Origin: an uncultured delta proteobacterium
Lineage (GTDB): Bacteria; Myxococcota_A; Polyangia; Polyangiales; Polyangiaceae
NCBI GenBank assembly: GCA_963782055.1
Contig: CAWAIF010000003.1
Span: 6,823,948-6,887,947 of the forward strand
Length of the DNA: 64,000 nt
Direction: 5' to 3'
The notes beneath the pieces were generated by a model. It ran no database searches. It worked only from the letters and a program-made list of their open reading frames with translations, and was not told the DNA's origin. Both the position numbers and the translations under genes were made by a program. Positions 1 to 41,770 of the stretch are shown one piece after another; position 1 is the stretch's first letter, and every line of letters starts with the position of its first letter.

Positions 1-2
1 AC

Positions 3-248
3 GACGGCGGGGAGGCGTCTCTGGATGGCGGCGCCCCCGTGGACGCAGCGGGCGTCGCCGTCTCCATGCGCTACTGCGCCACGCGCGCGGGCCCTGTGTC
101 CTCCTGCGACGCGGGCCCGGATGCCGGTTGGGTCCTTTATTGCCCTGACGGAACGAAGTGCGAGGTCTACCACCTAGGCATTTGGGGTTGCTGTTACCCA
201 CTTCACAAAGGATGCGGCTATGGCAATCCTCATTCCGTCTGTCGGTGA
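3..248 (+). CDS. Small Cys-rich secreted protein, 5'-truncated by the window edge. C-terminal motif YCATRAGPVSSCDAG...GIWGCC is shared with the next gene.
   Basis: Open frame from the window start to TGA at 246-248. Cys pattern and high third-position GC. Tandem paralog of the 380..871 gene. Confidence 0.4.
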   Translation, partial: DGGEASLDGGAPVDAAGVAVSMRYCATRAGPVSSCDAGPDAGWVLYCPDGTKCEVYHLGIWGCCYPLHKGCGYGNPHSVCR

Positions 249-379
249 TGGCCGCGCCTGTATCACCCACATCGGCACGCAGGGGCTTCAAGGGCAACGG
301 CACACCCGAGCAGGTGTTCCACAACGGCAGCACCACGTTGACGGTCGCCGTAGGCGCCGGTTGCCCCTGAGCGGCCACG

Positions 380-871
380 ATGTCGGAGCGCTCCATGCAT
401 GCCATCTATTGCACAATCACCGCCGCGACGCTCCTGGCGTGCGGCGGCCACATCGACACTGGGGGCGGCCAGAATGACGGCGATGGCGATGCATCGCTCG
501 ATGGCGGCGCGACCGTGGACGGGGCCGGGGTCGACGCAGTCGCCAAACCCTACTGCGCCACGCGCGCCGGCCCCGTGTCGTCCTGCGACGCGGGTGCCGA
601 CGGCGGGTAGGTGATGCGCTGCCCCGATGCCGTGACCGATTGTCGATTCGTCTCGGGCTTTTGGGGTTGCTGTACTAATACTCTGCAATACGTCTGCAGG
701 TATGCCTCTTCTACTGACGCGCCCGGCGCCCGGCTGTCAATGAGCGCCGTGACAGCCCTCATTTCGGAAGTCGCCGCACCGTACTCTGAAGGAGATTATA
801 TCCGGTGTCGCCCACCCAGTATACGTACTGGTCGTCTACCACCACCTCCGCGACCTGCTCAGGACCGGTGA
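380..871 (+). pseudogene. Cys-rich small lipoprotein, signal peptide with lipobox LLACGG. Reading frame is interrupted by an in-frame TAG at 608-610 that replaces a Trp conserved in the upstream paralog.
   Basis: ORF 380..610 ends GG*, and the same frame continues as 611..871 with the conserved CPD..C..GFWGCC motifs. Aligns to paralog 3..248, where TGG stands at this position. Confidence 0.35.
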
Positions 872-921
872 CCGCGAAAACCTGGTGATCGCCACAGGCC
901 GGCAGTTCGCACTTCTCGACG

Positions 922-1779
922 CTACCACCGAGCCCTTCCGTGGCCCAATACATGGAGGGGGCCATCGATCGCGAACGTCGCCCCTGTCGCGTCGAGCAGG
1001 ACCGGCGGTCCGGCGCATCCGGTGAGGGGACACCTCTGGATGTCTCCGTTAGTCCAGTAGACGACGCCGCTGGCGACGACGATGGCGGATATCTTCCGGT
1101 CCGTCGAAGCGAACGCCCTCGTCGTGCTCGTGCAGTCGGATTTCTGACACGTCATCAGCGCGTCCGACGTGCCCCAGAAGAGCGAGTCCGCACCGATGGC
1201 GATCGCGAACGGGGAGGCCTGGCCGCCGGCGAGCAGGGTGGGCTGGTTTCCGCAGCCCGCAATGTCGCAGCACATGACGGTGCCCTTCGTCCGCTCCGTC
1301 CAGTAGACGCTCGTCGCGTCGACGGCGATGCGCTCCGGGGCGATGGGACCGGAGACGAGGGTGGTCGGCGTCGCGCAGCCGGCGAGGGAGCATTCCTCGA
1401 TGGCCCCGGGCGCCGGCGGGACGGGCGATCGGGACCAGTAGACATTGGCGCCGTCGACGGCCAGATCGGTCGGAGAATCCTCGGTTGCGATCGTCTGAGG
1501 CTGGCAGTCGTCCTTGGCGCAGGCGGCGACCGTGCCGCCGGATTCAATCCAGTGAAGGCTCGTGGCGTCGACGACGAGCCGGTCCACAAAGTGGGGAGAC
1601 GATGAGGATGCGACATACGTCGGCGCCTGGAGGGACCAGCACTCGCCCTCCGCGCACGAGAGCCCGGGGGCGCACGTGCCACCTTCGAGGCAGGCTTGAC
1701 CCTGCTGTCCCGTGCCGACATCCGCCGGCTCGCCGCAGCCGGCGAGCAGCAAGGCTACGAGAATCGCCCGCGTGTCCAT
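922..1779 (-). CDS. Lipoprotein with repeated VYW / YWTD-like beta-propeller motifs. Paralog of 9074..10093. The 3' end is frameshifted at a C5 run near 955; the conserved C-terminus continues in ORF 759..965 in another frame.
   Basis: Signal peptide MDTRAILVALLLAGCG. Repeated D(A)TSVYWT / GANVYWS motifs. About 85% similar to 9074..10093. Frame break inferred by alignment to the paralog (FAIDG|SSMYWATGGLG). Confidence 0.55.
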   Translation of the reverse strand: MDTRAILVALLLAGCGEPADVGTGQQGQACLEGGTCAPGLSCAEGECWSLQAPTYVASSSSPHFVDRLVVDATSLHWIESGGTVAACAKDDCQPQTIATEDSPTDLAVDGANVYWSRSPVPPAPGAIEECSLAGCATPTTLVSGPIAPERIAVDATSVYWTERTKGTVMCCDIAGCGNQPTLLAGGQASPFAIAIGADSLFWGTSDALMTCQKSDCTSTTRAFASTDRKISAIVVASGVVYWTNGDIQRCPLTGCAGPPVLLDATGATFAIDGPLHVLGHGRARW

Positions 1780-1900
1780 CGGGTCGGAGCTTACGGGCTC
1801 CGAGGGCGGTGCGCACGCATCACCCATCCTCAACCCTTCTGATCTCTTGATCTTGCTGTTCCACAACCACCCACGATCACCCATCTTGCACACCGCGCGC

Positions 1901-3304
1901 TCAATCCGCGCCCTTGATGCTCGCCACCGGGTAGAGCCGCTTCGCGACGCGCGCGATCTCCTCCGCCTCCAGCACCGCGAGCACGGCGTCCAGGTCCTTG
2001 TAGACGTGCGCGCACTCGTCCAGCGGGATGTGCCGGTGGTTGCTGACGATGCCCTCGACGGTCACGCCGCCGAGCGTGCGCTTCACCGTCGCCATCTCCT
2101 GGTCGATGCGATCCTGCTTGTGCTCGAGCTGCCGCCGCGCCTTGCCCCGCGCCATCACCCGGCCGGAGCCGTGGTTGACCGAGCACGCGCTCGCGTACGC
2201 GTTGGCGTCGGCGAAGAGGATCGCCGCGCCCTCGTACATCGAGCCCGGGATGAGGCACGGGTGGCCGGTCTCCTCCCACGCGGTGCCCGCGAGGTCCGGG
2301 TGGCCCGCCGGGAAGGCCCGCGTCGCGCCCTTCCGGTGCACGAAGCCCCGTTGCGTCGTGCCATCCGGCAGCACCAGCGTCTCCTGCTGGACCAGGTTGT
2401 GGCTGATCTCGTAGTAGACCTCCACGTCGGCGCCGAAGACCTCCTGCGTCGCCTCCCGGATGCCGTTGACGATGACGTGCCGGTTGGCGACGGCGAAGTT
2501 CGCCGCGGAGTTGTGGTGGGCCCAGTACTCCTCGCCGAGCGGCTCGTCCGCCCGCAGCCACGACTCCTCCCGCCGGCTGGACGGCAGGCCCCGCAGCCGC
2601 GCGCCCTCGTAAAAGAAGTGGTTGGCGGTCTGCCAGCCGTAGCCCCGGCTGCCGCAGTGGACCATCACGTACACCTCTCCGGTGTCCCGGTCGCACTGCA
2701 TCTCGACGAAGTGGTTGCCGCCGCCGACGGAGCCGAGCTGCGGGAGCACGCTGGCGTACGCCTTCTGCACCTTGCGCAGGTCCGCGTCTTCCGGCACCGG
2801 GATGTACTGCCGCTCGCAGAGGTCGGCCGAGACGCCGAGCGCCTTGGCGCCGTGCCGCAAGATCTCCTCCGTCTGGCTCGCCTTGAACTTCGGCATGAGC
2901 TCCGGCCGGTGCCGGCCCTTGCCCGTCGCGATCCGCCGCTCCACCTCCCGCACCCACCGCTCCCGCGCGTACTTGCTCCGCACCGCGCCGGCGCCGAGGT
3001 CGGCCTTCATGGTGAGGATGCCGCAGGAGATGTCGTAGCCGGAGCCGCCCTGCAGGATGGTGTCGCTCGTGACGATGACCGAGCCGACCGGCACGCCGTA
3101 GCCGGTGTGCGTGTCGGGCATGAGGTACGCGCCGATGACGCCCTCGAAGCTGGCGCCGGCGTGGATCTGCTGCCACACCGTCTCCTCCGACGCCTCGTAG
3201 AGCGCCTCGGAGAGGAAGGCGTGCGCGTCCACCTTCATGGTCCCGGTCCTCGGGAGCACGTAGTGGTTCTCGGTCACCTTGGTGACGGCGTACTTGAGCG
3301 ACAT
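1901..3304 (-). CDS. rtcB: RNA-splicing ligase RtcB (3'-phosphate/5'-hydroxyl nucleic acid ligase)
   Basis: 467 aa. Conserved RtcB motifs are visible in the translation (GGNHF, MVHCGSRGYG, HNHA-like). Full-length family member. Confidence 0.93.
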   Translation of the reverse strand: MSLKYAVTKVTENHYVLPRTGTMKVDAHAFLSEALYEASEETVWQQIHAGASFEGVIGAYLMPDTHTGYGVPVGSVIVTSDTILQGGSGYDISCGILTMKADLGAGAVRSKYARERWVREVERRIATGKGRHRPELMPKFKASQTEEILRHGAKALGVSADLCERQYIPVPEDADLRKVQKAYASVLPQLGSVGGGNHFVEMQCDRDTGEVYVMVHCGSRGYGWQTANHFFYEGARLRGLPSSRREESWLRADEPLGEEYWAHHNSAANFAVANRHVIVNGIREATQEVFGADVEVYYEISHNLVQQETLVLPDGTTQRGFVHRKGATRAFPAGHPDLAGTAWEETGHPCLIPGSMYEGAAILFADANAYASACSVNHGSGRVMARGKARRQLEHKQDRIDQEMATVKRTLGGVTVEGIVSNHRHIPLDECAHVYKDLDAVLAVLEAEEIARVAKRLYPVASIKGAD

Positions 3305-3560
3305 GGCGTGGTCACCGACGGGGTGAGGCGAGCGTACCGGACATCGGTCCGCGGGAGGTCACGGCGTCGTCGGGCCCCGGGCACTGCGCATGCGAACCCG
3401 CATGATTCTTTGCGGAGGCACGCGTTCAGGAACGTAGCGGGCCCACACGCACCCCACTAAAGTGCAATCCATCGCCGTCGTGCGTTGACGAGCTGGAGTT
3501 CCTCCTCCAGGCTGCTCGGGCGAGGAGGGAGCCATGAGCAAGCAAGCATCCGGGCGGTGG
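3063..3560. repeat. Direct repeat copy 1 (~500 bp, ~92% identical to 5263..5765). Spans the rtcB 5' coding end plus its upstream region up to an ATG-(GCAA)2 tract.
   Basis: Direct alignment of the two stretches in the sequence. Divergence begins exactly at the GCAA tract on one side and inside rtcB codon ~80 on the other. Confidence 0.8.
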
Positions 3561-3700
3561 GAGCTGCCAGTAGCCTGCGCTCGCCGCGTCGGAACGGAGG
3601 CGGAGGTCTCGTAGGCGACGCGCACCACGTGGGGGATGGCGGCCATCGTTCAGGTTGAGGTCCGCGTTGGGCACCCTCTCCCGCATGAGCCACGCGAGAT

Positions 3701-3756
3701 CACTTTAGTGGTCTATTTTGTGGACGACGGCAAACATTTGGACCACTTTAGTGGTC
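3701..3756. promoter_or_regulatory. Two palindromic operator-like sites with core CACTTTAGTG. Site 1 is 3701-3710. Site 2 is the 16-bp palindrome GACCACTTTAGTGGTC at 3741-3756, which abuts the hipA-like ATG at 3758. The same 10-mer in inverse orientation (CACTAAAGTG) occurs at 3455-3464 and 5652-5661.
   Basis: Seen directly. Inverted-repeat arms CCACT/AGTGG separated by TT. Position overlaps the RBS/start of the downstream toxin gene, as is typical of HTH-antitoxin autoregulation. Confidence 0.45.
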
Positions 3757-3757
3757 C

Positions 3758-5020
3758 ATGCCTCGCTGTACGCTGGAAATATTCGTGGGGAAGCGCTGGG
3801 CGCGCGCGGGCGAGGTGCACGTCACCGACGAGGCGGCCGGCTACGCCGGTCCAGCCCGCTTCGAGTACGACTTCGACTACCTCGAGGGCCACGGGGATGC
3901 GCTCGGGGCCGTCGACGCGCGCGCGGTGTCGTGCCGCTATCCACTCGCTTACGACGTGCGCGACGAACCGCGCTGGCCCGCGTTCTTGCTCGACGTGATC
4001 CCGTCCGGCGCGGCGAGACGCTTCTGGGAGCGGGAGCTCGGGGTCGCGAACGTTGCTTCCTCCGACTGGGCCGTGCTCCTGCGCGGCGGGGGCAATCCGC
4101 CCGGTAACCTTCGCATCGCCGAGGCGGCGCCACCGCCACCCAGGGCGCACCGGGGCTTCGCCCGCGCAGACGTCGTGGCGCGGGCAGAGCGCTTTCTCGA
4201 GCACGCTCGCGCCCACGGTGCGGAGGTCGCCGGAGCCACCGGCGCGGGAGGCGACTCTCCCAAGCTGCTCTTGCGCGAAGATCGCACCGGGCGCTTCCAC
4301 GCCGACGGCGCGATCGACGACGCGGCGACACGCGCGCTCTGGCTCGTGAAGTTCCCGCGATCGCGCAAGGACGTGGACCGGCTCGTGCTGGAGACCGAAG
4401 CCGGGTACCACCGCGTCGCGCGGCGCTTCGGCGTGCGCGTGCACGCCGACCTCACCTGGGAGAGTGACTGCCTCTTCGTACCGCGCTTCGATCGGGTGCT
4501 CGAGGAAGACGGGGGGGTTCGCAGGCTCGGCCTGGAGAGTCTGTGCTCGCTCGCGGGGGTCTCCGACTTCGGGGTGCCGGTCACCAAGGAGGCGCAGGCG
4601 GAAGCGCTCGTGAAGTTCGCCTCGGATCCGGTAGAGGCGCTTCACGAATTCGTGCTCCGCGACGTGCTCAACGTCGCCCTCGGCAATACCGACAATCACG
4701 CGCGGAATACCGCGGTCCTCAAGGACGAGCGCGGCAGCGTCGCGCTGTCACCCCTCTACGATTTCGCCCCGATGCTCCTCGACTCCGAGGGCATCGTCCG
4801 CGTGTGCCGCTGGAGCGACGAGGTGGCCGGGTTCCCGCGCTGGACGGCGGCGCGCGAGGCGCTCGGTGAAGGCGGGATCAGCTGGCTGAGATCGATCGCC
4901 CATCGCGTGCGCACGCTGCCGCGGTGGCTGGACGAGGAGCGCGTCCCCCAGCGGGTTCGCGAGGCGGTGCTCCCGCGCATCGCGCGCGTCGCGCACGACC
5001 TGGAGGAGGGCACGAGGTGA
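3758..5020 (+). CDS. hipA: HipA-like Ser/Thr kinase toxin-family protein (HipA C-terminal kinase fold)
   Basis: 420 aa. Catalytic-loop-like motif NTDNHARNTAV (compare HipA GATDGHAKNFSV), LSPLYDFAPM (compare LTPFYDIISA), and an N-terminal LEIFVGKRWARAGEV coupling-domain-like start. Confidence 0.78.
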   Translation: MPRCTLEIFVGKRWARAGEVHVTDEAAGYAGPARFEYDFDYLEGHGDALGAVDARAVSCRYPLAYDVRDEPRWPAFLLDVIPSGAARRFWERELGVANVASSDWAVLLRGGGNPPGNLRIAEAAPPPPRAHRGFARADVVARAERFLEHARAHGAEVAGATGAGGDSPKLLLREDRTGRFHADGAIDDAATRALWLVKFPRSRKDVDRLVLETEAGYHRVARRFGVRVHADLTWESDCLFVPRFDRVLEEDGGVRRLGLESLCSLAGVSDFGVPVTKEAQAEALVKFASDPVEALHEFVLRDVLNVALGNTDNHARNTAVLKDERGSVALSPLYDFAPMLLDSEGIVRVCRWSDEVAGFPRWTAAREALGEGGISWLRSIAHRVRTLPRWLDEERVPQRVREAVLPRIARVAHDLEEGTR

Positions 5021-5280
5021 CCAAGGAGGAACGCGCGACGCTGCGCCGCGAGCTCTATGCCCGGATAGACCGCGGAGACATCGGGCTCGTGGAGGCCATC
5101 CGCACCATGCGCAGGATCGTCGGCAAGAGCCAGGTCGACTACGCGCGGCTCGTCGGGGTCAGCCCGCGCATCCTCAAGGAGATCGAGCGCGGCGTGGGGA
5201 ACCCGACAATGGAGACGCTCCGGAAGATCCTTCGTCCGTTCCGGCTCGACGTGGGCGTGCGCCGGGCGTCGTCACGATGA
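5017..5280 (+). CDS. XRE-family helix-turn-helix DNA-binding protein (HipB-like antitoxin candidate). Its GTG start overlaps the hipA-like stop (GTGA).
   Basis: VTKEERATLRRELYARI...QVDYARLVGVSPRILKEIERGVGNPTMETLRKIL is a typical XRE HTH. The 4-nt overlap suggests translational coupling. Gene order toxin-then-HTH is the reverse of canonical hipBA. Confidence 0.6.
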   Translation: MTKEERATLRRELYARIDRGDIGLVEAIRTMRRIVGKSQVDYARLVGVSPRILKEIERGVGNPTMETLRKILRPFRLDVGVRRASSR

Positions 5281-5506
5281 CCGAGCCGACCGGCACGCCG
5301 TAGCGGGTGTGGGTGTCGGGCATGAGGTACGCGCCGATGACGCCCTCGAAGCTGGCGCCGGCGTGGATCTGCTGCCACACCGTCTCCTCCGACGCCTCGG
5401 AGAGCGCCTCGGACAGGAAGGCGTGCGTGTCCACCTTCATGGTCCCGGTCCTCGGGAGCACGTAGTGGTTCTCGGTCACCTTGGTGACGGCGTACTGGAG
5501 CGACAT
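5174..5506 (-). pseudogene. Truncated duplicate of the rtcB 5' end (first ~80 codons only). Homology stops at the repeat boundary, after which the reading frame runs into unrelated sequence.
   Basis: MSLQYAVTKVTENHYVLPRTGTMKVDTHAF...GSVIVT matches the RtcB N-terminus at ~90%. Lies inside direct repeat copy 2. Confidence 0.7.
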
Positions 5507-5765
5507 GGCGAGGTCACCGACGGGTGAGGCGAAGATACCGGACACCGGTCCGCGGGAGGTCGCGGCGTTGTCGGCCCGCACACTGCGCATGCCAACCCGC
5601 ATGATTCTTTGCGGAGCCACATGTTCATGAGGGAGCGCGCCCACACCCGCCCACTAAAGTGCAATCCATCGACCGCCGTGCGTTGACAAGCTAGAGTTCC
5701 TCCCCCAGGCTGCTCGGGCGAGGAGGGAGCCATGAGCAAGCAAGCAAGCAAGCAAGCAAGCGCAA
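5263..5765. repeat. Direct repeat copy 2 of the rtcB 5'/promoter segment (partner of 3063..3560). The GCAA tract at its end is expanded to 6 units.
   Basis: Sequence alignment to 3063..3560. Confidence 0.8.
5736..5759 (+). repeat. Tetranucleotide microsatellite (GCAA)6. It lies immediately after an SD-preceded ATG (5732-5734) and upstream of an out-of-frame lipoprotein signal peptide.
   Basis: Seen directly. GGAGGgagccATGa then GCAAx6. The duplicated copy at 3538-3545 has only 2 units. Confidence 0.9.
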
Positions 5766-5792
5766 TCTTCGGGCCTTCGACGCCGCACGCTC

Positions 5793-7667
5793 TTGAGCGC
5801 GCTCGTCGCGGTCTGCGGCACGTCGATGCTCGGCTGGACCTGCGGTGACCCACCCGTCCGGCTCGGAGGCAACGACCTGATCTTCGGTACGCAAGCGCCG
5901 GGGAGCGGCGCGGGCAGCGTGGCGCGCTTGCAGCTCGGCTCGTCCGCGCCTTTCGACCACTGGGACTACCGCGGCGACGCGCTCATCGCCAACGCGGCGA
6001 ACAGCGGTGACCCGGCGAACGAACCGCTCGACCCGTTCGACTTGCCCGCGTACCCCATCGACGGAACGGGGCCCGGAGGCAACCTGAACGTCGAGTACGT
6101 CTTGCAGCACGCATTCTGGGTCACGCGGCAGGGGCGGCATGGGTCCGTCGATCTCGCCGACCAGCACGAGATCATGCTCTTCGCGCGCGATCCCCAGGAG
6201 CAGGCGGAGACGATGCGGAGCTTCGTCGGGAACTACGCGGACGCGGGTACGGCGATCCAGTTCTTCCCGGGCGACTGGGGCAACCTCTGGAACGTGGCCG
6301 CCGTCCCGCTTCCCCGTGGGTTCGTGTACCCTCCCAGCGCCAACTACAACCTCGGCACGCTCGACGAACCGCTACCCGTTCCGCTGACCTTCCCCCTGGT
6401 CGACAAGGCCATCTTCTGGCCGAACTACGTCCCGGTGGGGCCGGGCACGGAGCCCGATGGGCACTCCTCGGTCAAGGCGGTGAAGATCATCAACCGCGGT
6501 CTCTGCGGCAGGGAGCTGCCGTACTACACCGGCGATCCGGACAACCCCGGCATCCTCGAGACCGTGGTGGCCGAGGCCGCTCCGGCGATCGCCGGAGGCA
6601 TCGTCAACGCGGACTGTCACGCCGACGTCACCGTACCCTGGTCGCAGGCCGGCTCCTTCATCGACTTCACCACGGAGCGGGAGGATCGCCAACTCGGAGG
6701 CTTCTTCTTCAACATGGCCGAGAGGTCGTCCGGGTACCTCGGCGTGCAGAGCAAGGTCCTGGCCCGGGCCGCCATCCGGTTCGAGCTCTTCGACGGCCGA
6801 CTCTCCTCGGAAGGCGAGATGGTCCACACCAACGCCGCCGGCGGCCTCGGCGAGGCCGGCGGACTCGTGAGCGACAAGGTCGTCGTCGCCGTGTCCAACG
6901 TCCTCACGAGGGCGATGGACGCACCGCTTCCCACGAACGCCGAGCCAGAGACCCTCGCGGAGACGATTTACCGCGCGTCGGGCGACCTGCAGGGCTACGC
7001 GGGCAGCGACGGGTACAACAAGGCGAAGAAGAAGTTCAACATCGACACCGTGACCGGTCAAACCCGTGTCGATCTGGACGCGACCGGAGGGGACGACTCG
7101 GTGCCGCCGACCACGGCCGACCTGTCCGCGACGCGCTGTGCGGTGTTCGTGGATAGCTTTCGTCACCAGCTCAAGCAGGGCGACCTGCCGGTCGTTGCCC
7201 CCATCCTCGGCCTGACCCCGGCGGAGCGGCAGCAGGTGTGGGACGCGAAGCTCAACGAGACCGAGGTCCGGAACGGCAAGACCGTGCTCAAGAACTTCCG
7301 CTGCGTCCACAGACCCGACAATCCGAAGGACCAGGACCCCAACGAAGGGATCTGCGAGTACGTCGTCCGCGCGAAACGGGTCAACGTCTTTCCCGACGGT
7401 GTGGAGCTGGTCCTGCTCGACGACCTCAAGGACATCAACCAGGCGGCTTATCCGGTGTGGGTCCACGCGATGGCTGCGCAGCTCACCGGGACGGCCGACG
7501 CGCTGAGCAACGTCTGCGATCCACCCCGGTCCCAGGGCGCGACATACACCTTTCGCCCTTTCGTGAGCCCCTTCAAGCTCACCAGCCACGGGGACCGCCA
7601 CTTCCGCTGCGCGGACTCCTGCACGGCGTTTCTCCCGGACTTCTGCTCCCATGTCGAAGAGTACTGA
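5793..7667 (+). CDS. Large secreted lipoprotein of unknown function. The track start (TTG 5793) falls inside the signal-peptide hydrophobic core; the functional start is probably ATG 5732, which requires a change in the GCAA tract length.
   Basis: In the main frame the upstream sequence encodes ...SGLRRRTLLSALVAVCG (n-region RRR, h-region, lipobox AVCG). It contains no ATG/GTG/TTG between a TGA at 5733-5735 and 5793. High third-position GC through 7667. Confidence 0.65.
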   Translation: MSALVAVCGTSMLGWTCGDPPVRLGGNDLIFGTQAPGSGAGSVARLQLGSSAPFDHWDYRGDALIANAANSGDPANEPLDPFDLPAYPIDGTGPGGNLNVEYVLQHAFWVTRQGRHGSVDLADQHEIMLFARDPQEQAETMRSFVGNYADAGTAIQFFPGDWGNLWNVAAVPLPRGFVYPPSANYNLGTLDEPLPVPLTFPLVDKAIFWPNYVPVGPGTEPDGHSSVKAVKIINRGLCGRELPYYTGDPDNPGILETVVAEAAPAIAGGIVNADCHADVTVPWSQAGSFIDFTTEREDRQLGGFFFNMAERSSGYLGVQSKVLARAAIRFELFDGRLSSEGEMVHTNAAGGLGEAGGLVSDKVVVAVSNVLTRAMDAPLPTNAEPETLAETIYRASGDLQGYAGSDGYNKAKKKFNIDTVTGQTRVDLDATGGDDSVPPTTADLSATRCAVFVDSFRHQLKQGDLPVVAPILGLTPAERQQVWDAKLNETEVRNGKTVLKNFRCVHRPDNPKDQDPNEGICEYVVRAKRVNVFPDGVELVLLDDLKDINQAAYPVWVHAMAAQLTGTADALSNVCDPPRSQGATYTFRPFVSPFKLTSHGDRHFRCADSCTAFLPDFCSHVEEY

Positions 7668-8493
7668 GGTCCGGCCGAAGGCGGGCCGACGGCTCGAAGG
7701 GCGCACAGTGACCGAGCTGGGACGAACACGCATCAATCATGTCGCGGCGCTACTAGTCGTACCCATGCTCGTGATCGCGGCGTGCGGAGGAGAGATCACG
7801 GACAATGGCCAGGACGGGGGAGCAGACACCGGTCTAGCTGGTGATGGCTCGGGCACGGACGCCGGCTACACCCAGTGTGTTGCGCCCAACGACGACTCGC
7901 TGTGTGGTGGCCAGTGCTCGGATGTCTGCGCATCCGGCTTTCCCTGCCTGAAGGACACGCAAGAAGTCTTGGGTCTGTGTCCGCGAAAGGGGGCGCACCT
8001 CGGGGGCGACTGTACTCGCTGCGCAGACGGCTACCTGTGTACCGACCGTACTACCCTCACCGATCCAGCCGGCGCATACTGCGCCGACGAGGAGTACGGC
8101 GTACTCCTTGCCATGAACGGGAAGAGCGACTGGGTCCGCTACTCCGACCGCGCGGCCTACACCGGCGCGCCGATCCCGCCGCCTCCCACCACCTGCCCCG
8201 ACGTCCCAGGCCTCCACCTCTGCGGCGGGGCCTGCGGTGACTGCCCGAGCGGGTGGTTCTGCATCGGCCGCTCGCCCATGCACCCCATCAGCCTGTGCTT
8301 CCCGCCAGGGGCCAACAGCCAGGGTCCCTACTCGTGCTCCAAGCCGGGACCTTGTGACATCATCGGACAGCACTGCTTCACCTTCAAGGTGGACAGCGCA
8401 TCGCAAGCCATCGCGGACGCGAACGGTCTGTGCGTGACGGACGCGCAGTGCCCGCTCGCCGCGCAGTACCCCGGGGGCGGGAGCTGCCAGTAG
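7651..8493 (+). CDS. Cys-rich secreted lipoprotein. Paralog of 29075..29950 with a shared C-terminal motif FTFKV..SQ.IADANG.C....QLPGGG.C.
   Basis: Signal peptide with lipobox LVIAACGG. 28 Cys. Paralogy seen directly. Confidence 0.62.
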   Translation: MSKSTEVRPKAGRRLEGRTVTELGRTRINHVAALLVVPMLVIAACGGEITDNGQDGGADTGLAGDGSGTDAGYTQCVAPNDDSLCGGQCSDVCASGFPCLKDTQEVLGLCPRKGAHLGGDCTRCADGYLCTDRTTLTDPAGAYCADEEYGVLLAMNGKSDWVRYSDRAAYTGAPIPPPPTTCPDVPGLHLCGGACGDCPSGWFCIGRSPMHPISLCFPPGANSQGPYSCSKPGPCDIIGQHCFTFKVDSASQAIADANGLCVTDAQCPLAAQYPGGGSCQ

Positions 8494-9073
8494 GGGCAGC
8501 GCGTGCTCGGCACGCGCCGCCGAGGTCCGTCCGCGTGGAGCACCAGCCTCCCCGATGGCGCGCGGCGCGCGACATCGCCATGGCACTACCCGCAGAAGCC
8601 GTCGAACTGCTCCCGGGGAGCCCCTGTTGGGTGCGCTCGCCTGGCGAGAACAGGCGAGAACATGAAGCTCTCGTCGACGTTCTGCATGACGTGCCCGTCG
8701 TCGGCGTCGAGCTCGCGGACCATGTCGCGACGAAGACGAGCGAGACCGCGCTGCACGTCGCTGAAGACGCACGGGGCCTGGTATGCTCTGGAAGAAGGGT
8801 CCGACGATGGACGGAGACCGTCGAGGGTGGTCCATGACCTACGAACGTGTCGCCTGGTGCTTTCTTCGTCGCTCGGTCAGCGCCGAGGCCATCGGCCGGA
8901 GGCTCGCTCCTTCGCCTCCCAACCGCGACGATCCGCTCGACCGTGACGACGGCCGGCGCGGACCTGGACGCGACCCGCAGCAGGGACACGCGACGACCTA
9001 GTCCGCCGCCGCCACACGCAGCGGCCCCCGGACACGCCCGCGGATTGATCCAGACCGGCGACCAGAAGCGAAA

Positions 9074-10093
9074 TCACCTCGGGAGACGCCACATCATACC
9101 AAAAGCGGCCATATAATGCTGGTTGTTTGCCCAATACACATATTCATCGTCCACGACCACTTCCGAGGCGGACTGGCCCGTGGCGAGAACCTGGCGGTCG
9201 CGGCACGTCGGCAGTGCGCACTTCTCCACCGTGGAGTCACCGAGCCCTCCCGTGGCCCAGTACATGGACGAGCCGTCGATCGCGAACGTCGCCCCTGTCG
9301 CGTCGAGCAAGACGGGCGGTCCGGCGCATCCGGTGAGGGGACACTTCTGGATGTCTCCGTTCGTCCAGTAGACGTCACCGCCGGCGACGACGATGGCGAT
9401 GATCTCCCGGTCCGTCGAAGCGAACGCCCTCGTCGTGCTCGCGCAATCGGATTTCTGACACGTCATCAGCGCGTCCGACGTGCCCCAGAAGAGGGAGTCC
9501 GCACCCATGGCGATCGCAAACGGGGAGGCCTGGCCGCCGGCGAGCAGGGTGGGCTGATTTCCGCAGCCTCCGATGTCACAGCGCATGACGGTGCCCTTCG
9601 TACGCTCCGTCCAGTAGACGCTGGCCGCGTCGACCACGATACGCTCCGGGGCGATGGAACCGGAGACGAGGGTGGTCGGCGTCGCGCAGCCGGCGAGGGA
9701 GCACTTCTCGATGGCCCCGGGCGCAGGTGGGAGGGGCGATCGGGACCAGTAGACGTTGGCGCCGTCGACGGCCAGGTCGGTCGGCGAATCCTCGGTTGCG
9801 ATCGTCTGAGGCTGGCAGTCATCCTTGGCGCAGGCGAAGACAGTGCCGCCGTACTCGATCCAGTGAAGACTGGTGGCGTCGACGACGAGCCGCGCCACCG
9901 AACCGGATGACGCCGAGGATGCGAGGTACGTCGGCGGCTGGAGGGACCAGCACTCGCCCTCCGCGCACGAAAGCCCGGCGGCACACGTGCCGCCCTCGAA
10001 ACAGGCTTCGCCCTGCTGTCCCGTGCTCGCCGGCTGCGCAGACTCGCCGCAGCCAGCGAGGAGCAGCGCGATCAGGATCCCTCGCGTCCCCAT
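9074..10093 (-). CDS. Lipoprotein with VYW / YWTD-like beta-propeller repeats. Intact paralog of 922..1779.
   Basis: MGTRGILIALLLAGCG signal with lipobox. Repeated ..SVYWT.. motifs. Full C-terminus ...YVYWANNQ. Confidence 0.7.
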   Translation of the reverse strand: MGTRGILIALLLAGCGESAQPASTGQQGEACFEGGTCAAGLSCAEGECWSLQPPTYLASSASSGSVARLVVDATSLHWIEYGGTVFACAKDDCQPQTIATEDSPTDLAVDGANVYWSRSPLPPAPGAIEKCSLAGCATPTTLVSGSIAPERIVVDAASVYWTERTKGTVMRCDIGGCGNQPTLLAGGQASPFAIAMGADSLFWGTSDALMTCQKSDCASTTRAFASTDREIIAIVVAGGDVYWTNGDIQKCPLTGCAGPPVLLDATGATFAIDGSSMYWATGGLGDSTVEKCALPTCRDRQVLATGQSASEVVVDDEYVYWANNQHYMAAFGMMWRLPR

Positions 10094-10225
10094 GAAGAGG
10101 GAGTGTACCGCCTTCAAGCGCGGTCTTCTACCGAGGCTTCGGCGGCGCGATTGCCGTCTGATGGACGTCAACCAATCTTGCAGGTGAGCGACGACAACTT
10201 GCAGGTCGGTGCACGGCTCCCAGAG

Positions 10226-11926
10226 CTACAACCTCCCCTGCAGCACCGCCGAGAACGTGGTCACCAGCTTCGTCGGGGCGGAGTCGCCCGAGGCGCGCGC
10301 GGTGTCGATGGCCTGATCGAACTCCAGGTCGAGCTGCAGCGCCCTGGTGTAGTGCGCGGCGGCGACGACGCCCAGGGTGTGGCGGCCGTTGTCGCCGAGG
10401 TTCACGTCGGGGGAGTAGTAGTCGTAGCGCAGCGCCAGCGTCGCCCAGCGGGTGAAGTCCTGCTCCAGACGCACCACGCCGCCGAGCTCCTGCTTGTTCA
10501 CCACGTCGGCGTTGATGTCCGCCGGGATGGTGGGCAGCCCGAAGGCGTAGTGGACGCCGCGGTCCATGTTGCTGCCGGTGGCGACGGAGAGGAAGGCGCG
10601 GGAGGCGCCTAGCTTCTTGAAGAACTTGTGGTGCAGCGTGGCGTCGAGGTCGACGAGCCAGCGCGGGTAGTTCTTGAAGCGGAGCTTCTGCGCGTCGACG
10701 GTCTGCCCCTGGCCGAGCCAGCCGCCCACGGCCACGTCCGCCGGGCCGAAGTCGTAGCGGACGCGGAGGGTGCCGTCCTTGCCCTTGTTCAGGTCGGGGA
10801 CGACGGTGAAGCCGGGCTCGCCGAGCATCTTGCCGTTCATCAGGCCGAGGTCGACGCGCACGCGGTCCTTGCGGGTGCGGAAGTCCACGTGGGCGCCGGT
10901 GTCGAACTCCTCCGGGAAGAGGTTCTGCTCCATGAAGGAGTGCTCGATGAAGGGGCGGTCGGGGTCGTACTCGAGCACCTCCTGGGAGATGAAGGGCTTG
11001 AACATGCCGGCGCCGAACTCGACGCGCATGCCGCGGGGCAGCGGCACGACGCCGATGGCCTCCACGTGCCGCGCGGGGGTGCCCGTGCCGTCGAGGGGGC
11101 CGCCGAGGGGGATGGGCGCCACCTCGATGACGAAGCGCGCGAAGGGGTTGGGCTCGAAGTGGAGGGCGACGCGCGCGCGGCGGAGGCGGAAGACGTCGCC
11201 GTTGGTGGTGGTCCCGTCGGGGCGGGCGATGGTGTCGTTGGCGCCGATGCCGTCGGGGAGGATGCCGTTCTGGGCGTTGGGCGAGGCAGCGGCGTTGTAC
11301 AGGTGATAGACGAGCTGCGGCTGGACGAAGGCCTCGAGACGCAGGTGACGGAGCCACCGCATCGGCCCGTGGTTCTCTCGCGCGCGCTCGCGCAGCAGGT
11401 GACCGACGACGCGCTCCAGGCGCCGGATGCGCTCGGCGTCGCGGTCTCCCCCGCCGAAGCGACCGCCCCAGGCGCGTCCGCCACCCGGACCGCCGGGACC
11501 CCAGCCGCGACCAGGCCCACCGGGGCCGGGACCCCGGCCGCGCCCGCCACCTGGACCGGCGCCTCGACCACCACCGCGCGCGCCGCCTGGACCCCAGCCT
11601 GGGCCGCCGCGCCCGGGGCCGCGACCCGGACCCCACGGACGCGGCGCCGGTCCGGTCTCGGTGCCGGACGTGGAGAGCGGTTGATCCTGCCACGGCGGCG
11701 GCGGAGGCACGGGGATCGCCGGCGGCGTCGCCGTAGCGGCTCCCGCCGCCGCCGCGCCGGCCTTCGGCGCCTCGTTCTTCTTCGGCGCCTCGTTCTTCTT
11801 CGGCGCGTGGTCTCCCTTCGGCGCGCCGCCCTTCTTCGGCGGCGCGCCGGTCTGTGCGAGCGCGGGGCTCGCGGCGAGGAGACTCACGAGGCACGCGGCC
11901 GCCCACGACATCGTCCGTCGACGCAT
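10226..11926 (-). CDS. Outer-membrane beta-barrel (porin-like) protein. An ~110-aa Gly/Pro/Arg/Trp-rich low-complexity region (GPGRG/WGPGG repeats) follows the signal peptide.
   Basis: Signal peptide MRRRTMSWAAACLVSLLAASPALAQ. C-terminal alternating amphipathic segments ending ...FSAVLQGRL. Low-complexity tract seen directly. Confidence 0.55.
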   Translation of the reverse strand: MRRRTMSWAAACLVSLLAASPALAQTGAPPKKGGAPKGDHAPKKNEAPKKNEAPKAGAAAAGAATATPPAIPVPPPPPWQDQPLSTSGTETGPAPRPWGPGRGPGRGGPGWGPGGARGGGRGAGPGGGRGRGPGPGGPGRGWGPGGPGGGRAWGGRFGGGDRDAERIRRLERVVGHLLRERARENHGPMRWLRHLRLEAFVQPQLVYHLYNAAASPNAQNGILPDGIGANDTIARPDGTTTNGDVFRLRRARVALHFEPNPFARFVIEVAPIPLGGPLDGTGTPARHVEAIGVVPLPRGMRVEFGAGMFKPFISQEVLEYDPDRPFIEHSFMEQNLFPEEFDTGAHVDFRTRKDRVRVDLGLMNGKMLGEPGFTVVPDLNKGKDGTLRVRYDFGPADVAVGGWLGQGQTVDAQKLRFKNYPRWLVDLDATLHHKFFKKLGASRAFLSVATGSNMDRGVHYAFGLPTIPADINADVVNKQELGGVVRLEQDFTRWATLALRYDYYSPDVNLGDNGRHTLGVVAAAHYTRALQLDLEFDQAIDTARASGDSAPTKLVTTFSAVLQGRL

Positions 11927-12012
11927 GGCGCGACTGTACACGTGAGGCGGCCTCCTTCCGAGCCCTGCGAGCGCGAGCGCGGGCACCAGAAGGGCCGCGG
12001 GGCGCCTGGTCG

Positions 12013-24029: not shown

Positions 24030-24140
24030 GACGAAATGCTCCAAATCCCTCGAAGGGCGCGGGAAACTACGGGACGGAGTCTCGTCTGTCAAGGGAGGGG
24101 TGGCCCTCCTGGCTCGTGCTCTGGCCCATGCTCGCTCGCA

Positions 24141-24300
24141 CGCGGGCCGGCGGGCTGCGCAGGCGAGGCGTGCGCCGTCGCGCGCGCGAGCTTGCGCGTG
24201 GGCCCTGCGCGCGAGCCTCCTCACCTCGGCCATCGCTATCGCTCGGCCGGGGAGGACGATCGGCTGCCAGCTCTGCTCTCTGCAGTCTGAACGCATGGTC
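24141..24300. repeat. Dispersed GC-rich repeat element, copy A, with consensus ~GCGCGAGCTTGCGCG.GCCCTGCGCG...CCATCGCT.GCTCGG.CGGGGAGG
   Basis: Shares these blocks with 36395..36500 (same orientation) and 47170..47290 (reverse complement). Intergenic. Confidence 0.55.
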
Positions 24301-29084: not shown

Positions 29085-29950
29085 GCCCCGCCCCCCGGGA
29101 GCTGGGCGGCGAGCGCCTGACACGTGGCCGATGGCAAGCAGACGCCATTGGCGTCTGCGATGGACTGCGACTGCGGCGTGACCTTGAAGGTGAAGCACGC
29201 GTCGCCCCCGCTGCATGGCGGCTGGCCGGCACCGCAGATGCTATTCACCGTGGTGGCCGCGCAGAAGCCGACGGGGTGCAGGGGCGCGCGCCCGATGCAG
29301 TGCTGCCCGGTATCACACCCGCCGCAGTTCCCGCCGCACACCTGGACACCCGGGATCGAGGGGCACATGGACGGATTGGGTGGCGTGTCGCCGGTGAACA
29401 GATCGCGGTCGTAGTAGGTGACGTCTAGGTCGGCGGAGGCGTCCGGGTCGGCGCGGTAGAGCAGCTCACCCAGCTCGAAGGGAAAACACATCAGGCCCTT
29501 GAGTGGCTGGTGATAGCCACTCGGCACACACAGGTCGCCATCGTTACAATTGAGGCATCCGGTCACGCCGAAGGAATAGGCCGCGAGGGCCTTGTTGTAG
29601 CAGATTTGGACCGGCGCCGAGGCATCGCACCCCGAAAGGCAAGCCGTTGGAGGATCGCAGCCCCCGCCGCAGATGGCATATCCGCTCGGCGACATGCAAC
29701 GCGAGTAGCCCGCGTCGTCGACCGGGCCGGCGTCGATCACGTCCGGCGCAGCGTCGGGGCGTCCGGCCTCCGGGCCCTCGTCGACGGTGCCCCCGCAGGC
29801 GGCGAGCACCCAAAGCAGCGCGGGAAGCCACCGGAGCGTCACTGGCACTGCCCGTTCGTCGGGTTGGTCGCTGGCGGCGTACACCCGCTCGTGTTCCCCT
29901 GCGTGCAGATGGGCTGGACGCAGGCACGTGTATCGCAATCGACTGCGCAC
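29075..29950 (-). CDS. Cys-rich secreted lipoprotein, paralog of 7651..8493
   Basis: Shared C-terminal block ..CFTFKVTPQSQSIADANGVCLPSATCQALAAQLPGGGACN. Signal peptide/lipobox LLWVLAACGG. Confidence 0.6.
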   Translation of the reverse strand: MRSRLRYTCLRPAHLHAGEHERVYAASDQPDERAVPVTLRWLPALLWVLAACGGTVDEGPEAGRPDAAPDVIDAGPVDDAGYSRCMSPSGYAICGGGCDPPTACLSGCDASAPVQICYNKALAAYSFGVTGCLNCNDGDLCVPSGYHQPLKGLMCFPFELGELLYRADPDASADLDVTYYDRDLFTGDTPPNPSMCPSIPGVQVCGGNCGGCDTGQHCIGRAPLHPVGFCAATTVNSICGAGQPPCSGGDACFTFKVTPQSQSIADANGVCLPSATCQALAAQLPGGGACN

Positions 29951-31611
29951 GGCCCCGCAGGAGTCTCACTGCTAGGACAGGTGGCCGGGCCGCCATTCTT
30001 GAACGCCCAGTCCTCGTTGTAGAAGTTGGCCAGATCGATGCCGGCATCGACGAGCGGCGCTCGCCTGGCGGTGCAGATCTTGGTGAACCAGTCCGTCCGC
30101 GTGAAGTCGACGTGTCCGAGTGGTGGCGCGTCCGTCATGAACGAGGCGTAGAACAAGGCGAGCGCCGGGTTGTTGATCTCGTCCAGACGATCGAAGAGCA
30201 CAGCCTCTGCCGCCTGCGGCCGGTAGTTCAGCCGCTTCATCGGGACGATGATCTCGCAGCGCCCGTGATGCGGGTTGACGCACGCGTTGCTCCGGTCGAC
30301 GGAGCTGGGGAAGGGCACGCAACCCCAGTGCACGAGGTGCCCCCCGGACGTCGCCATGATGGTCTCCGCGAGAGTATTGGCGTCGCTGGCTGCCATGCCG
30401 AACTCCTTTGCACCCTCGCTTGCGGTGTCTCTCACCGTCTTCGCCGCGGCTTTGCATTGCTCGCTCGGGTCCGCGGGGCACGTGTAGTTCGGGTCGCCCT
30501 TGACGGGATCGCACGCAAAGAGCGTGTCACGAGCCGAGTCGGAGAAGTCGTCCAGTTTGGGGTACATCTGCAGCGCCTGCGCCGTATCGTGAATCTGCCG
30601 CGGGATGTCGTCCGTCAGCGCGGACGTGAGCGTGTTGGAAAGTCCCGGGATGTCGACGAAGTACGGGGGGAAGATCACGTGGACGCCGTTGCACGCCCGT
30701 GTCGGCTGATCATCCAGCGTGCTCGGAAAGGCGTTGCCATGGCCATCCACGCCCGCAGGACCCCCGCCGAAGCTCGATTCAGCCGCCACGACGCCGTCGG
30801 AGCCCACGAAGAGGCGGAAGGCGCTCGAGAACGCCGCGTCGCATTTCTCATCTGGCCCGGGATTCACACCCTGGGTCACGTCAAGCAGTTCGAGCGCCAC
30901 GTTCGAGATCTGCAGCCTGACGTCACCGTTCATCACGAAGCCTCCTCGCAGGTCCTGCACCCGTCCCTGCGTGTGGGCGATGAACGAGGCGAAGTTGTCG
31001 TATGCGAGCGTCAAGGACGAGAGCGAGTCCGTGGTGAAGCACGCAGCCCCGTGGTTCGTGAACAGGCTTCCCCGGAGCCCCGTGTCGATCTGCGCGAACA
31101 GATCCGCGTATGCGAACTCCTGCGAGCATCCGCCAGCCTGCGAGAGGTAGGCGCTCCGGATCGTGCCCGAGTTGTTCGGCGAGTTGAAGTCGCCAGGCGT
31201 AAGGTGCAGCTCGGTCGGTGTGGGGCCGAAGGGTTGAGTCGTCGCCGGTAGGACCACACCGGGCGGCTGCTTCCGCGTCAAGCCGAGCCAGAAGAACTCC
31301 GCGGCCGTTCTGGTGAGCGCCTCGAAGCGATCCTCGAAGTCGATCGAGAAGATGTGCGCTTCGTAGGGGTTCACCAGCAGGGCCGAATCGAACGGATCGG
31401 CCAGGATGAATGCCGGAAGAGGGTCGTTCTCGTCGCTCCCGCGCAGGCGTGCGTGCACGGGAAACAATGTGGTGCCGCCGTGGAAGGAGTCGATGTATAG
31501 GCTCCTCGCCGGCACGCTCGCGAGCTCTCCGCAGGTCGTATACGTGTTGGGGCATCCCGTCGTGCCCCACGCGTACGTTTGCGGGGCGTACGTCAACCCG
31601 GGGATGATCAA
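29839..31611 (-). CDS. Secreted protein of unknown function. The frame is open upstream through a heptanucleotide SSR to an out-of-frame ATG at ~31852; the track start (TTG 31611) is probably not the real start.
   Basis: Upstream of 31611 the main frame encodes ..(LVARRSS)n LLLAVSAVTCNPSPPAGDHTYTFEILVDGAGATGGSGTQLVAFHSAGLKEL, which is signal-peptide-like, with no start codon. Confidence 0.65.
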   Translation of the reverse strand: MIIPGLTYAPQTYAWGTTGCPNTYTTCGELASVPARSLYIDSFHGGTTLFPVHARLRGSDENDPLPAFILADPFDSALLVNPYEAHIFSIDFEDRFEALTRTAAEFFWLGLTRKQPPGVVLPATTQPFGPTPTELHLTPGDFNSPNNSGTIRSAYLSQAGGCSQEFAYADLFAQIDTGLRGSLFTNHGAACFTTDSLSSLTLAYDNFASFIAHTQGRVQDLRGGFVMNGDVRLQISNVALELLDVTQGVNPGPDEKCDAAFSSAFRLFVGSDGVVAAESSFGGGPAGVDGHGNAFPSTLDDQPTRACNGVHVIFPPYFVDIPGLSNTLTSALTDDIPRQIHDTAQALQMYPKLDDFSDSARDTLFACDPVKGDPNYTCPADPSEQCKAAAKTVRDTASEGAKEFGMAASDANTLAETIMATSGGHLVHWGCVPFPSSVDRSNACVNPHHGRCEIIVPMKRLNYRPQAAEAVLFDRLDEINNPALALFYASFMTDAPPLGHVDFTRTDWFTKICTARRAPLVDAGIDLANFYNEDWAFKNGGPATCPSSETPAGPCAVDCDTRACVQPICTQGNTSGCTPPATNPTNGQCQ

Positions 31612-31763
31612 CTCCTTCAGCCCCGCGGAGTGGAACGCAACGAGTTGCGTCCCGGAGCCGCCCGTCGCACCGGCGCCATCAACGAGGATCTCGAAGGTGT
31701 ACGTATGGTCGCCTGCCGGTGGACTCGGGTTGCAGGTGACCGCACTGACAGCGAGGAGCAGGG

Positions 31764-31847
31764 CGACGAGCGACGAGCGACGAGCGACGAGCGACGAGCG
31801 ACGAGCGACGAGCGACGAGCGACGAGCGACGAGCGACGAGCGACATG
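31764..31847 (-). repeat. Heptanucleotide microsatellite (CGACGAG)~12 on the plus strand, (CTCGTCG)n on the coding strand. It lies directly after ATGTCG, and the ATG is out of frame with the downstream signal peptide.
   Basis: Seen directly. All three frames of the tract encode the same (LVARRSS)n heptad. Copy number is 12 by my reading (+/-1). Frame relation is derived from the track ORF phases. Confidence 0.85.
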
Positions 31848-37886: not shown

Positions 37887-38031
37887 CGCGCGCGCCGCCG
37901 CGCGAGGCTCGGGGTTCGCCCTCGGGGTGACGCGCTGACGACGGCGCGCCCGGTTCTGGCCATCCCCGGATCAGCGCGCGCGAACGACGATTGGGCGGGC
38001 ACCCGCCGGCAATCTCCGGCGACGAGAGTGC

Positions 38032-38409: not shown

Positions 38410-38438
38410 CGGGGCTCCGGGCGATTGGGCGGGTGACG

Positions 38439-41733: not shown

Positions 41734-41770
41734 GAGGAGCGCTCCGGATGCAGCTAGGACACTACGGGCA

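Follow-up and report, generated by a model that had tools for sequence, protein, structure and literature searches.

How a toxin–antitoxin (TA) module came to lie between two similar copies of the start of rtcB is the question raised by a locus near the left end of a 64,000-nucleotide stretch (hereafter the window) of contig CAWAIF010000003.1, from an uncultured delta proteobacterium of the Polyangiaceae. Here, a HipA-family kinase gene and a small gene for a helix-turn-helix (HTH) protein separate an intact rtcB from the gene of a predicted lipoprotein, and the same rtcB-derived segment precedes and follows the pair. A first-pass annotation of the DNA had drawn attention to this arrangement, and whereas its observation is confirmed by our analysis, its interpretation is partly supported. 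Our own preference, held with modest confidence, is that the flanking repeat is what remains of a segmental duplication after later losses, one of them a deletion starting in a simple sequence repeat (SSR).

The repeat itself is unambiguous. Copies A1 (3067–3548) and A2 (5269–5746) align by BLASTN at 92.5% identity over 483 columns (E=0), with 30 substitutions and 6 gap columns, in agreement with the direct repeat of roughly 500 bp described at first pass. The window is high in GC throughout (about 65–75%), and no third copy was found within its 64 kb. In both copies, rtcB codons 1–80 (minus strand) adjoin about 230 bp of intergenic DNA, after which come a GGAGG ribosome-binding site, an ATG and the beginning of a GCAA tract. 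Read from left to right, A1 thus passes from rtcB codon 80 to codon 1 and through the divergent intergenic region to GGAGG, ATG 3534, (GCAA)2 at 3538–3545 and a final GCA. The tract reads (GCAA)2 and then GCAT in copy 1 and (GCAA)6 in copy 2, which places the left break within the SSR, as had been proposed. Leftward, copy 1 runs on into the intact rtcB, and rightward, copy 2 runs on into a 1.9-kb open reading frame (ORF), designated here lipoprotein gene L, for which A2 contains the promoter, ribosome-binding site and ATG in actual use. The differences between the copies are spread unevenly, amounting to 7 of 238 positions (2.9%) in the coding part, 19 of 165 (11.5%), along with 5 gap columns, in the middle and 4 of 74 (5.4%) near the ATG; the coding and middle segments differ at p=0.0008 (Fisher's exact test).

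Only one of the two rtcB copies is whole. The intact gene (1901–3304, minus strand) encodes a 467-residue RNA ligase (Pfam RtcB, E=2.4e-85), has a GC content at third codon positions (GC3) of 0.98 and has its codons 1–80 within A1. Its counterpart in copy 2, rtcB′ (5267–5509, minus strand), is a pseudogene of codons 1–80 that runs into the HTH gene at its 3′ end and matches at 94% over 80 residues in tblastn. By comparison with six outgroup RtcB proteins, its amino-acid changes K4Q, A27T, Y36S and G68R are all derived in copy 2, and the last of these puts Arg in place of the invariant Gly68. Four of the six substitutions in rtcB′ codons 1–79 are non-synonymous. Since all four amino-acid differences arose in copy 2, the stub appears to be decaying in place, and the earlier description of a truncated rtcB′ pseudogene holds.

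Between the copies lie the two genes that had been named at first pass, a 420-residue HipA-family kinase and an XRE-type HTH gene coupled to it through GTGA. The kinase gene (3758–5020, plus strand), a putative Ser/Thr kinase toxin gene, matches HipA_C (PF07804) with 98.7 bits against a cut-off of 30.5 (E=5e-28); Couple_hipA (PF13657) scores just below threshold in the window kinase, at 21.7 bits for a cut-off of 22.5, and is recorded in many of its homologs. Across 28 homologs, the catalytic loop GNTDNHxRN, the YD motif and a GxGGDSPK loop are conserved, with G309, N310, T311, D312, N313, H314, R316, N317, D335 and the stretch G162–K169 invariant. A single-sequence search for a relative of solved structure returned none, and kinases in the PDB were reached by the family profile only: the profile of 28 members extends to the kinase cores of HipT and E. 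coli HipA, with GNxDxHxxN and YD in alignment. The HTH gene (5017–5280, plus strand; 87 residues; HTH_3, 3e-10), a putative antitoxin and autorepressor gene, starts at a GTG that overlaps the hipA stop by 4 nt, and its product is 84% identical to the partner encoded at the homologous locus L001. Both genes have a GC3 of 0.87–0.89, compared with 0.98 for rtcB. That the pair forms a self-contained type II TA module of reversed gene order, with the HTH gene translationally coupled to the kinase gene, is well supported at the level of sequence, and by analogy with HipB and HipA, the HTH protein probably neutralizes the kinase and represses the operon.

The limits of this module can be drawn from its relatives. 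We found 820 homologs of the kinase, mostly from Polyangia (named sources are Labilithrix, Polyangiaceae, Pendulispora, Myxococcales and Deltaproteobacteria), and the best 120 are 53–79% identical. Homologous cassette loci were retrieved as L001, L002, L003, L004, L015 and L016, with the pairing at L003 partial. The kinase precedes the HTH gene in 7 of 7 loci examined, and the 4-nt overlap recurs wherever the contig is complete. The order of toxin and then regulator, which the first-pass annotation had called unusual, is thus the rule within this clade, and it is already described as hipAB and hipEB (PMC8262856). Seven homologous cassettes occupy six different contexts, none with rtcB, and their neighbors vary from PIN and MazEF genes to VWA/BatA genes and an aminotransferase gene. 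No similarity was detected among the homologous loci upstream of the distal of two operator-like palindromes (O1, below), and we therefore take the cassette to extend from this operator to the HTH stop codon. Conversely, 10 rtcB loci (65–81% amino-acid identity, from a scan of genome contigs with RtcB) contained no hipA, HTH gene or L, and the intergenic DNA of these 10 nearest loci was unlike that of the window and without synteny. A functional link between rtcB and hipA was considered and rejected, given the lack of co-occurrence in either the 7 hipA or the 10 rtcB loci.

The left junction (J1) lies at 3546–3550. Immediately past the break, the sequence reads CAT CCG GGC GGT GGG AGC TGC CAG TAG, or HPGGGSCQ followed by a stop (3547–3573). 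The next gene after L, orf7651, ends in TAC CCC GGG GGC GGG AGC TGC CAG TAG, or YPGGGSCQ and a stop (8467–8493), such that the two endings differ in the first codon (His versus Tyr) and thereafter in three synonymous third positions only. The BLASTN match between 3550–3573 and 8471–8493 is weak (E=0.045), and it is backed by the codon pattern, the peptide match and alignment statistics: local alignment of 3545–3641 with 8465–8560 scores 27, compared with a mean of 14.9 (standard deviation 2.3, maximum 23) for 300 random windows. On the plus strand, the remnant thus spans 3547–3641, comprising the gene end and probably some 65 bp of downstream flank, and the feature that it resembles spans 7651–8560, comprising orf7651 itself (7651–8493, a Cys-rich secreted protein of 280 residues) and its own flank of about 65 bp.

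The same gene order is found elsewhere. In a metagenomic sequence (L018), an L homolog of 40% identity is followed by an orf7651 homolog (45% amino-acid identity, 2e-48), and on the minus strand of the window, a distant L paralog (31848–29839; BLASTP 6e-7 against L) is followed by an orf7651 paralog (29950–29075, 39% amino-acid identity) that ends in LPGGGACN and a stop. L followed by orf7651 is therefore a genuine two-gene unit. Because an orf7651-like tail directly follows the break, we read the left junction as a deletion joint between the SSR and that tail. Copy 1 would once have had an L–orf7651 unit of its own, which was removed by a deletion that started in the GCAA tract and left only the last 9 codons of orf7651 in place. 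The first-pass annotation had suggested that the repeat tract was a hotspot for recombination or insertion. The breakpoint does lie in the tract, but what it marks is a deletion joint and not the edge of an inserted cassette.

At the right junction (J2; TCGTCA, 5269–5274, plus strand), homology to copy 1 begins inside the last HTH codons in the BLASTN alignment, as had been noted, and antisense rtcB′ sequence encodes the last 2–4 codons of the HTH gene. The window protein ends in VRRASSR (...CGGGCGTCGTCACGATGA), whereas its homologs end in VRRSA at L001 (...CGCTCGGCGTGA) and VRRGS at L015 (...GGGTCGTGA, with TCGTGA at the end). The equivalent place inside rtcB in copy 1 reads TCGTGACGATGA, with TCGTGA at 3067–3072. 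These endings suggest that the native HTH gene closed with ...GCGTCGTGA, that its stop region was joined to rtcB codon 80 through a 6-bp microhomology, TCGTGA, and that a G-to-C substitution, arising later in copy 2, converted the stop to a Ser codon and lengthened the HTH gene by two codons.

Taken together, the junctions point to the following course of events. A segment comprising rtcB from codon 80, the promoter region, L and orf7651 would have been duplicated in direct orientation, creating a novel joint at which the HTH stop codon meets rtcB codon 80. The proximal copy would later have lost nearly all of L–orf7651, with the deletion starting in the (GCAA)n tract and stopping short of the last 9 orf7651 codons. 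The outcome would be one working copy of each gene in a new order, along with three scars, namely rtcB′, the 483-bp repeat and the HPGGGSCQ tail. In the simplest version, a tandem duplication followed by loss, the ancestral order would have been leftward rtcB, A, and then rightward L, orf7651, hipA and HTH; the block from A to HTH would have been duplicated, the stretch from SSR to orf7651 tail deleted, and a second hipA–HTH pair deleted after about 8560. In a variant, hipA–HTH would have been copied into the duplication joint by template switching. The earlier proposal of a tandem duplication later filled by the cassette therefore keeps its tandem component, whereas the duplicated unit appears older and longer (rtcB′, promoter, lipoprotein gene and orf7651) and was followed by a deletion.

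Two kinds of observation lead us to prefer segmental duplication. Features of mobile elements are lacking, as we found no transposase or integrase ORF in 1–9000, no terminal inverted repeats at the unit ends, no short target duplication and no tRNA, and the flanking repeat is 483 bp long. The window also contains further segmental duplications, at 815–1810/9130–10124 (85.5%), 37892–38410/42132–42650 (99%) and 38426–39248/44336–45152 (80%). Moreover, the inner ends of the direct repeats are stubs (rtcB′ and the orf7651-like tail), and their outer parts continue into rtcB and L, which is the pattern expected from duplication and loss.

Several points weigh against this account. Past the 27-nt tail, homology at the left junction is only about 60–68% and depends on one alignment statistic, and the TCGTGA microhomology was deduced from a 79%-identical homolog and not from the true donor sequence. 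The loss of a second hipA–HTH pair after 8560 is required, and no hipA or HTH remnant was found elsewhere in the window; hipA–HTH may instead have been copied into the joint from a template. No relative in the collections searched was close enough to reveal the ancestral order or an empty site. The lipoprotein returned its own entry alone in a word-indexed search of 5.8 billion proteins, all proteins of the locus are singletons at 90% identity among 15 billion sequences, exact look-ups of the window HipA and of the public model of L (P0001) returned no contig, and a metagenome scan for the common string of ribosome-binding site, ATG and (GCAA)2 returned nothing. Finally, the uneven divergence of A1 and A2 goes beyond what simple neutral decay of a single pseudogene would produce, with the repeat middle having diverged at more than twice the rate of the rtcB′ stub, and would need one of three explanations: the coding part underwent gene conversion, the two promoter copies evolved apart or were under divergent selection, or one copy is of foreign origin.

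The last of these leads to the best-surviving rival, which we nonetheless consider unlikely: A1 and the cassette would have arrived from a related strain by homology-facilitated illegitimate recombination or Campbell-type integration, with one crossover in rtcB/A and the other end joined illegitimately at TCGTGA to the recipient's rtcB codon 80. The 7.5% divergence between A1 and A2 would then be the divergence between strains, and its pattern is indeed that of orthologous regions, with 2.9% in coding sequence, 5.4% in the proximal promoter and ribosome-binding site, and 11.5% plus indels in the spacer. The signature of microhomology at the right joint and the lower GC3 of hipA and the HTH gene relative to rtcB also fit. 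This route saves no step, however, because the donor would already need both the deletion from SSR to orf7651 tail and an adjoining cassette. The derived changes of rtcB′, with their non-synonymous excess, fit decay in place equally well, and the collections searched hold no relatives that could display rtcB mosaicism.

More doubtful still is a one-step insertion of a mobile hipA–HTH cassette at (GCAA)n, producing a target duplication of about 480 bp. The cassette family does occur in many unrelated contexts, as expected for horizontally moving TA modules, its right edge lies within 0–2 codons of the repeat edge, and the left break falls in a slippage-prone tract. Yet the roughly 150 bp between the SSR and O1 is not cassette DNA in any homolog and begins with the end of an orf7651-like gene; transposase, integrase, att-like site, terminal inverted repeat and tRNA are all absent. 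To our knowledge, target duplications of about 480 bp are not made by known transposition or site-specific mechanisms, which also counts against an insertion. An assembly artefact, whether a mis-join or a falsely duplicated repeat, is very improbable: SSR lengths are error-prone in some technologies, but a single collapsed or doubled sequence could not give copies that differ by 30 substitutions and 6 gap columns, both junctions yield sensible reading frames (the HTH gene ending two codons late through a point change and the L signal peptide read across the SSR), and the locus proteins are on record from a single 7.0-Mb contig.

With respect to regulation, the module brings its own control elements into the rearranged region. 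The CACTTTAGTG palindromes mentioned in the first-pass annotation are present at 3701–3710 and 3744–3753, and each forms the center of a longer, 16-bp palindrome with the consensus GACCACTWTAGTGGTC. Operator O1 (GATCACTTTAGTGGTC; 3698–3713, plus strand) lies at −59 from the hipA start, and O2 (GACCACTTTAGTGGTC; 3741–3756, plus strand) is a perfect 16-bp palindrome that ends 1 nt before the hipA ATG; the two are 43 bp apart, overlap the promoter and abut the start codon, and no Shine–Dalgarno sequence fits between O2 and the ATG. The proximal palindrome is conserved in all homologous loci at −16 (−24 in L004), ending 1–3 nt before the start codon. An operator-like palindrome occupies the distal site as well, at −59 in L001–L003 and L015 and −67 in L004, whereas within 3 mismatches L016 has the proximal site only.

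The pattern CACTWWAGTG has 4 matches in the window compared with 0.01 expected, so that the operator core is confined to O1, O2 and one site in each copy of the repeat. In A1, the core CACTAAAGTG lies at 3455–3464 (plus strand) and in A2 its twin lies at 5652–5661, about 75 bp upstream of the ATG in both cases. It has no counterpart upstream of the homologous cassettes, and its flanks differ from those of the 16-bp operator. As a lead only, the HTH protein may also bind here, at a third site, and so tie the TA module to the duplicated promoter of L, of rtcB or of both. We also considered whether repeat A derives, in its right part, from the 5′ end of another hipA gene and rejected this possibility, as local alignment was no better than for random windows and the 10-nt core alone is common to the repeat and the hipA 5′ region.

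Both neighbors would now have the shared control region in full, rtcB in copy 1 and L in copy 2. In copy 1, the rightward signals (promoter, ribosome-binding site and ATG) would now lead into an ORF of 26 codons and read towards hipA. If the leftward rtcB promoter in copy 2 is still active, it would read antisense into the HTH gene, and the duplicated promoter may thus be a source of antisense RNA against the antitoxin gene. A sigma54-like motif had been assigned to copy 1 at 3369–3384; we locate it instead at 3380–3393, as GGCAC-N6-TGC, and the window has 2 matches compared with 4.7 expected from shuffled sequence. As the motif is on the plus strand, it cannot drive rtcB, and the claim was dropped. 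A sigma70-type promoter scan of 3200–5900 gave no matches, an Rfam search of 1–12000 found nothing, and PADLOC yielded weak generic matches only. Both repeat copies also contain, on the plus strand, a hairpin formed by CATGCGAACCCGCATG and then ATTCTTTGCG (3389–3413 and 5588–5612); the one in copy 2 stands about 310 bp past the HTH stop and upstream of the lipoprotein promoter and could act as a weak terminator or insulator.

The GCAA tract that marks the left break also bears on the expression of L. In copy 2, an ATG is followed after 4 nt by (GCAA)6 (5732–5761, plus strand; Tandem Repeats Finder, 6.8 copies, 100%), and the body of L (5736–7667, plus strand; a coding-type GC3 of 0.89) is in frame 0 and, in the assembly, out of frame with its own ATG. 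No Pfam family was found for L, which has 113 distant homologs of at most 42% identity; the N-termini of these proteins consist of a signal peptide, a Cys and GNPPVR, and the corresponding part of L itself reads ...LLSALVAVCGTSMLGWTC-GDPPVR. ATG 5732 is the only start with a ribosome-binding site before the L signal peptide. In silico, six repeat units lead from this ATG into a 38-residue ORF, whereas 5, 8 or 2 units give a lipoprotein precursor of 639–647 residues that begins MSKQASKQAQSSGLRRRTLLSALVAVCGTSMLGWTCGDPP... With its signal peptide ending at a conserved Cys, the product is predicted to be surface-exposed or secreted, and because the ATG-(GCAA)6 start is out of frame, L is probably turned ON and OFF as repeat units are gained or lost. 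P0001, the public model of L (5826–7667, 613 residues), starts with MLGWTCGD after the signal peptide, omitting it because the microsatellite puts the true ATG at 5732 out of frame. Among the L homologs, the closest (L017, 42%) likewise has its positively charged N-region (MMAKITRRAAMVR and a stop, 225–300) out of frame with the body, and it has no repeat tract; the frame difference may be a sequencing error or a real frameshift.

L is one of three genes in the window with such a start. Exactly three perfect tracts have units of 4 nt or longer in 4 or more copies, and each stands 3–6 nt after an ATG and before a signal peptide with a Cys, is out of frame in the assembly and is one unit away from being in frame. 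The second, (TCGCTCG)11 (31763–31844, minus strand), begins 3 nt after ATG 31846–31844 and precedes ...LLLAVSAVTC; its body of 640 residues (29839–31761) is that of the distant L paralog and would be in frame with 7, 10 or 13 units. The third, (CCTCG)6 (41771–41803, minus strand), begins 6 nt after ATG 41806–41804 and precedes ...LLVLGVLSCSS, with a body of 455 residues (40402–41769) for which no Pfam family was found and which would be in frame with 4, 7 or 10 units. Tracts of at least 4 copies with a 4-, 5-, 7-, 8-, 10- or 11-nt unit were absent from 184 kb of loci from other genomes, a metagenome scan for ATG followed by (TCGCTCG)4 returned one unrelated low-GC contig only, and no report of SSR phase variation in myxobacteria was found in the literature searched. 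Judged from their DNA, the three SSR-led genes show the architecture of contingency loci. Homopolymer runs are present at 41830–41838 (C9) and 40181–40188 (C8); the former reads G9 on the gene strand, lies about 25 nt ahead of the start codon of the (CCTCG)6 gene and may be a second slippage-prone tract at this gene.

These strands can be combined in a single, more speculative picture, in which lipoprotein operons of the L–orf7651 type are true contingency loci, (GCAA)n acted as the breakpoint that reshaped the locus, the HTH protein binds CACTAAAGTG and the antitoxin gene is subject to antisense RNA. We regard the combination as plausible but somewhat doubtful.

Other repeats in the window were also recorded. 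The direct repeat of about 519 bp at 37892–38410 and 42132–42650 (99%, 4.2 kb apart) brackets the (CCTCG)6 gene, and one of its copies covers the 3′ 379 bp of a DUF1801 gene (42272–42724, minus strand); it represents a more recent segmental duplication of similar general type. The pair 815–1810/9130–10124 consists of paralogous minus-strand genes for secreted proteins with no Pfam family, at 85.5% identity along 1 kb and 93% within the central 300 bp, and brackets the whole rtcB–hipA–L–orf7651 region in direct orientation. Two copies (77%) of a small Cys-rich ORF (..YCATRAGPVSSCDAG..) lie at 3–133 and 476–612; the latter has TAG (608–610) in place of TGG and is probably a pseudogene. A 66-nt inverted repeat (36437–36502/47204–47269, 92% complementary, arms 10.7 kb apart) is related to 24094–24255 (about 74–81% identity).

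In terms of significance, the TA pair itself is ordinary, and its reversed order was already known. The locus offers a clean bacterial case in which the scars of duplication and loss are still readable as a promoter repeat, an 80-codon stub and a 9-codon tail, and these scars account for a TA module inside a divergent promoter region that disables neither neighbor. The operator architecture is now defined for a large, mostly Polyangia clade of kinase-first HipA modules, which makes its regulation directly testable. The part most worth following up is the frameshifting microsatellites at the starts of lipoprotein genes. If repeat lengths vary, SSR phase variation would extend beyond host-adapted pathogens to a large-genome, high-GC bacterium of the soil type, and annotation would be affected as well, as in the public lipoprotein model that starts after the signal peptide.

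Tandem duplication followed by random loss is a model for gene-order change in animal mitochondrial genomes (PMC5745709, PMC4223735), and as in that model, a block appears to have been doubled and single copies lost, leaving pseudogene stubs, duplicated non-coding DNA and a new order. Unlike in mitochondria, the process is rarely invoked for bacterial chromosomes; here it is deduced from scars alone, and the scar expected from loss of the second hipA–HTH pair is not visible. SSR contingency loci are established in Haemophilus, Neisseria, Campylobacter and Bartonella, where tetra-, penta- and heptanucleotide tracts lie in the 5′ coding region of surface-protein genes (PMC11868660). The genes described here resemble them in having a perfect tract, its unit length not divisible by 3, right after the ATG and before the signal peptide, such that a change of one unit restores the frame; three such genes occur within 64 kb. 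In contrast to those small-genome, host-adapted pathogens, the host is a large-genome, high-GC member of the Polyangia with a contig of at least 7 Mb.

As for the TA module, the kinase-first order has been described for the hipAB subclades (Hip-tree clades VI/VII) and for HipE/hipEB (clade IX) by Gerdes et al. (2021, mBio, PMC8262856), in whose set hipAB and hipEB account for 8 and 12 of 1,239 modules. The window module shares with them a long HipA-type kinase (a probable N-subdomain and a HipA_C core, with intact kinase motifs) followed by a small HTH protein, and with hipBA autoregulation the palindromic operators in its promoter. Whereas reversed modules are rare in that set, the order is reversed in all 7 loci here, in a family of at least 820 homologs; the tables of that study contain no myxobacterial names. 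In E. coli hipBA, HipB is an HTH antitoxin-repressor and HipA a kinase of GltX. The HipA_C domain, an N-terminus that in the window kinase is Couple_hipA-like near the threshold, an XRE HTH partner of about 88 residues and multiple palindromic operators overlapping the promoter are common to both systems, but in the window the gene order is inverted, there are two operators instead of four, and profile similarity extends no further than the catalytic core (E about 1e-5). Taken together, these comparisons suggest that the module belongs to a new and apparently large, mainly Polyangia group within the known reversed-order HipA kind.

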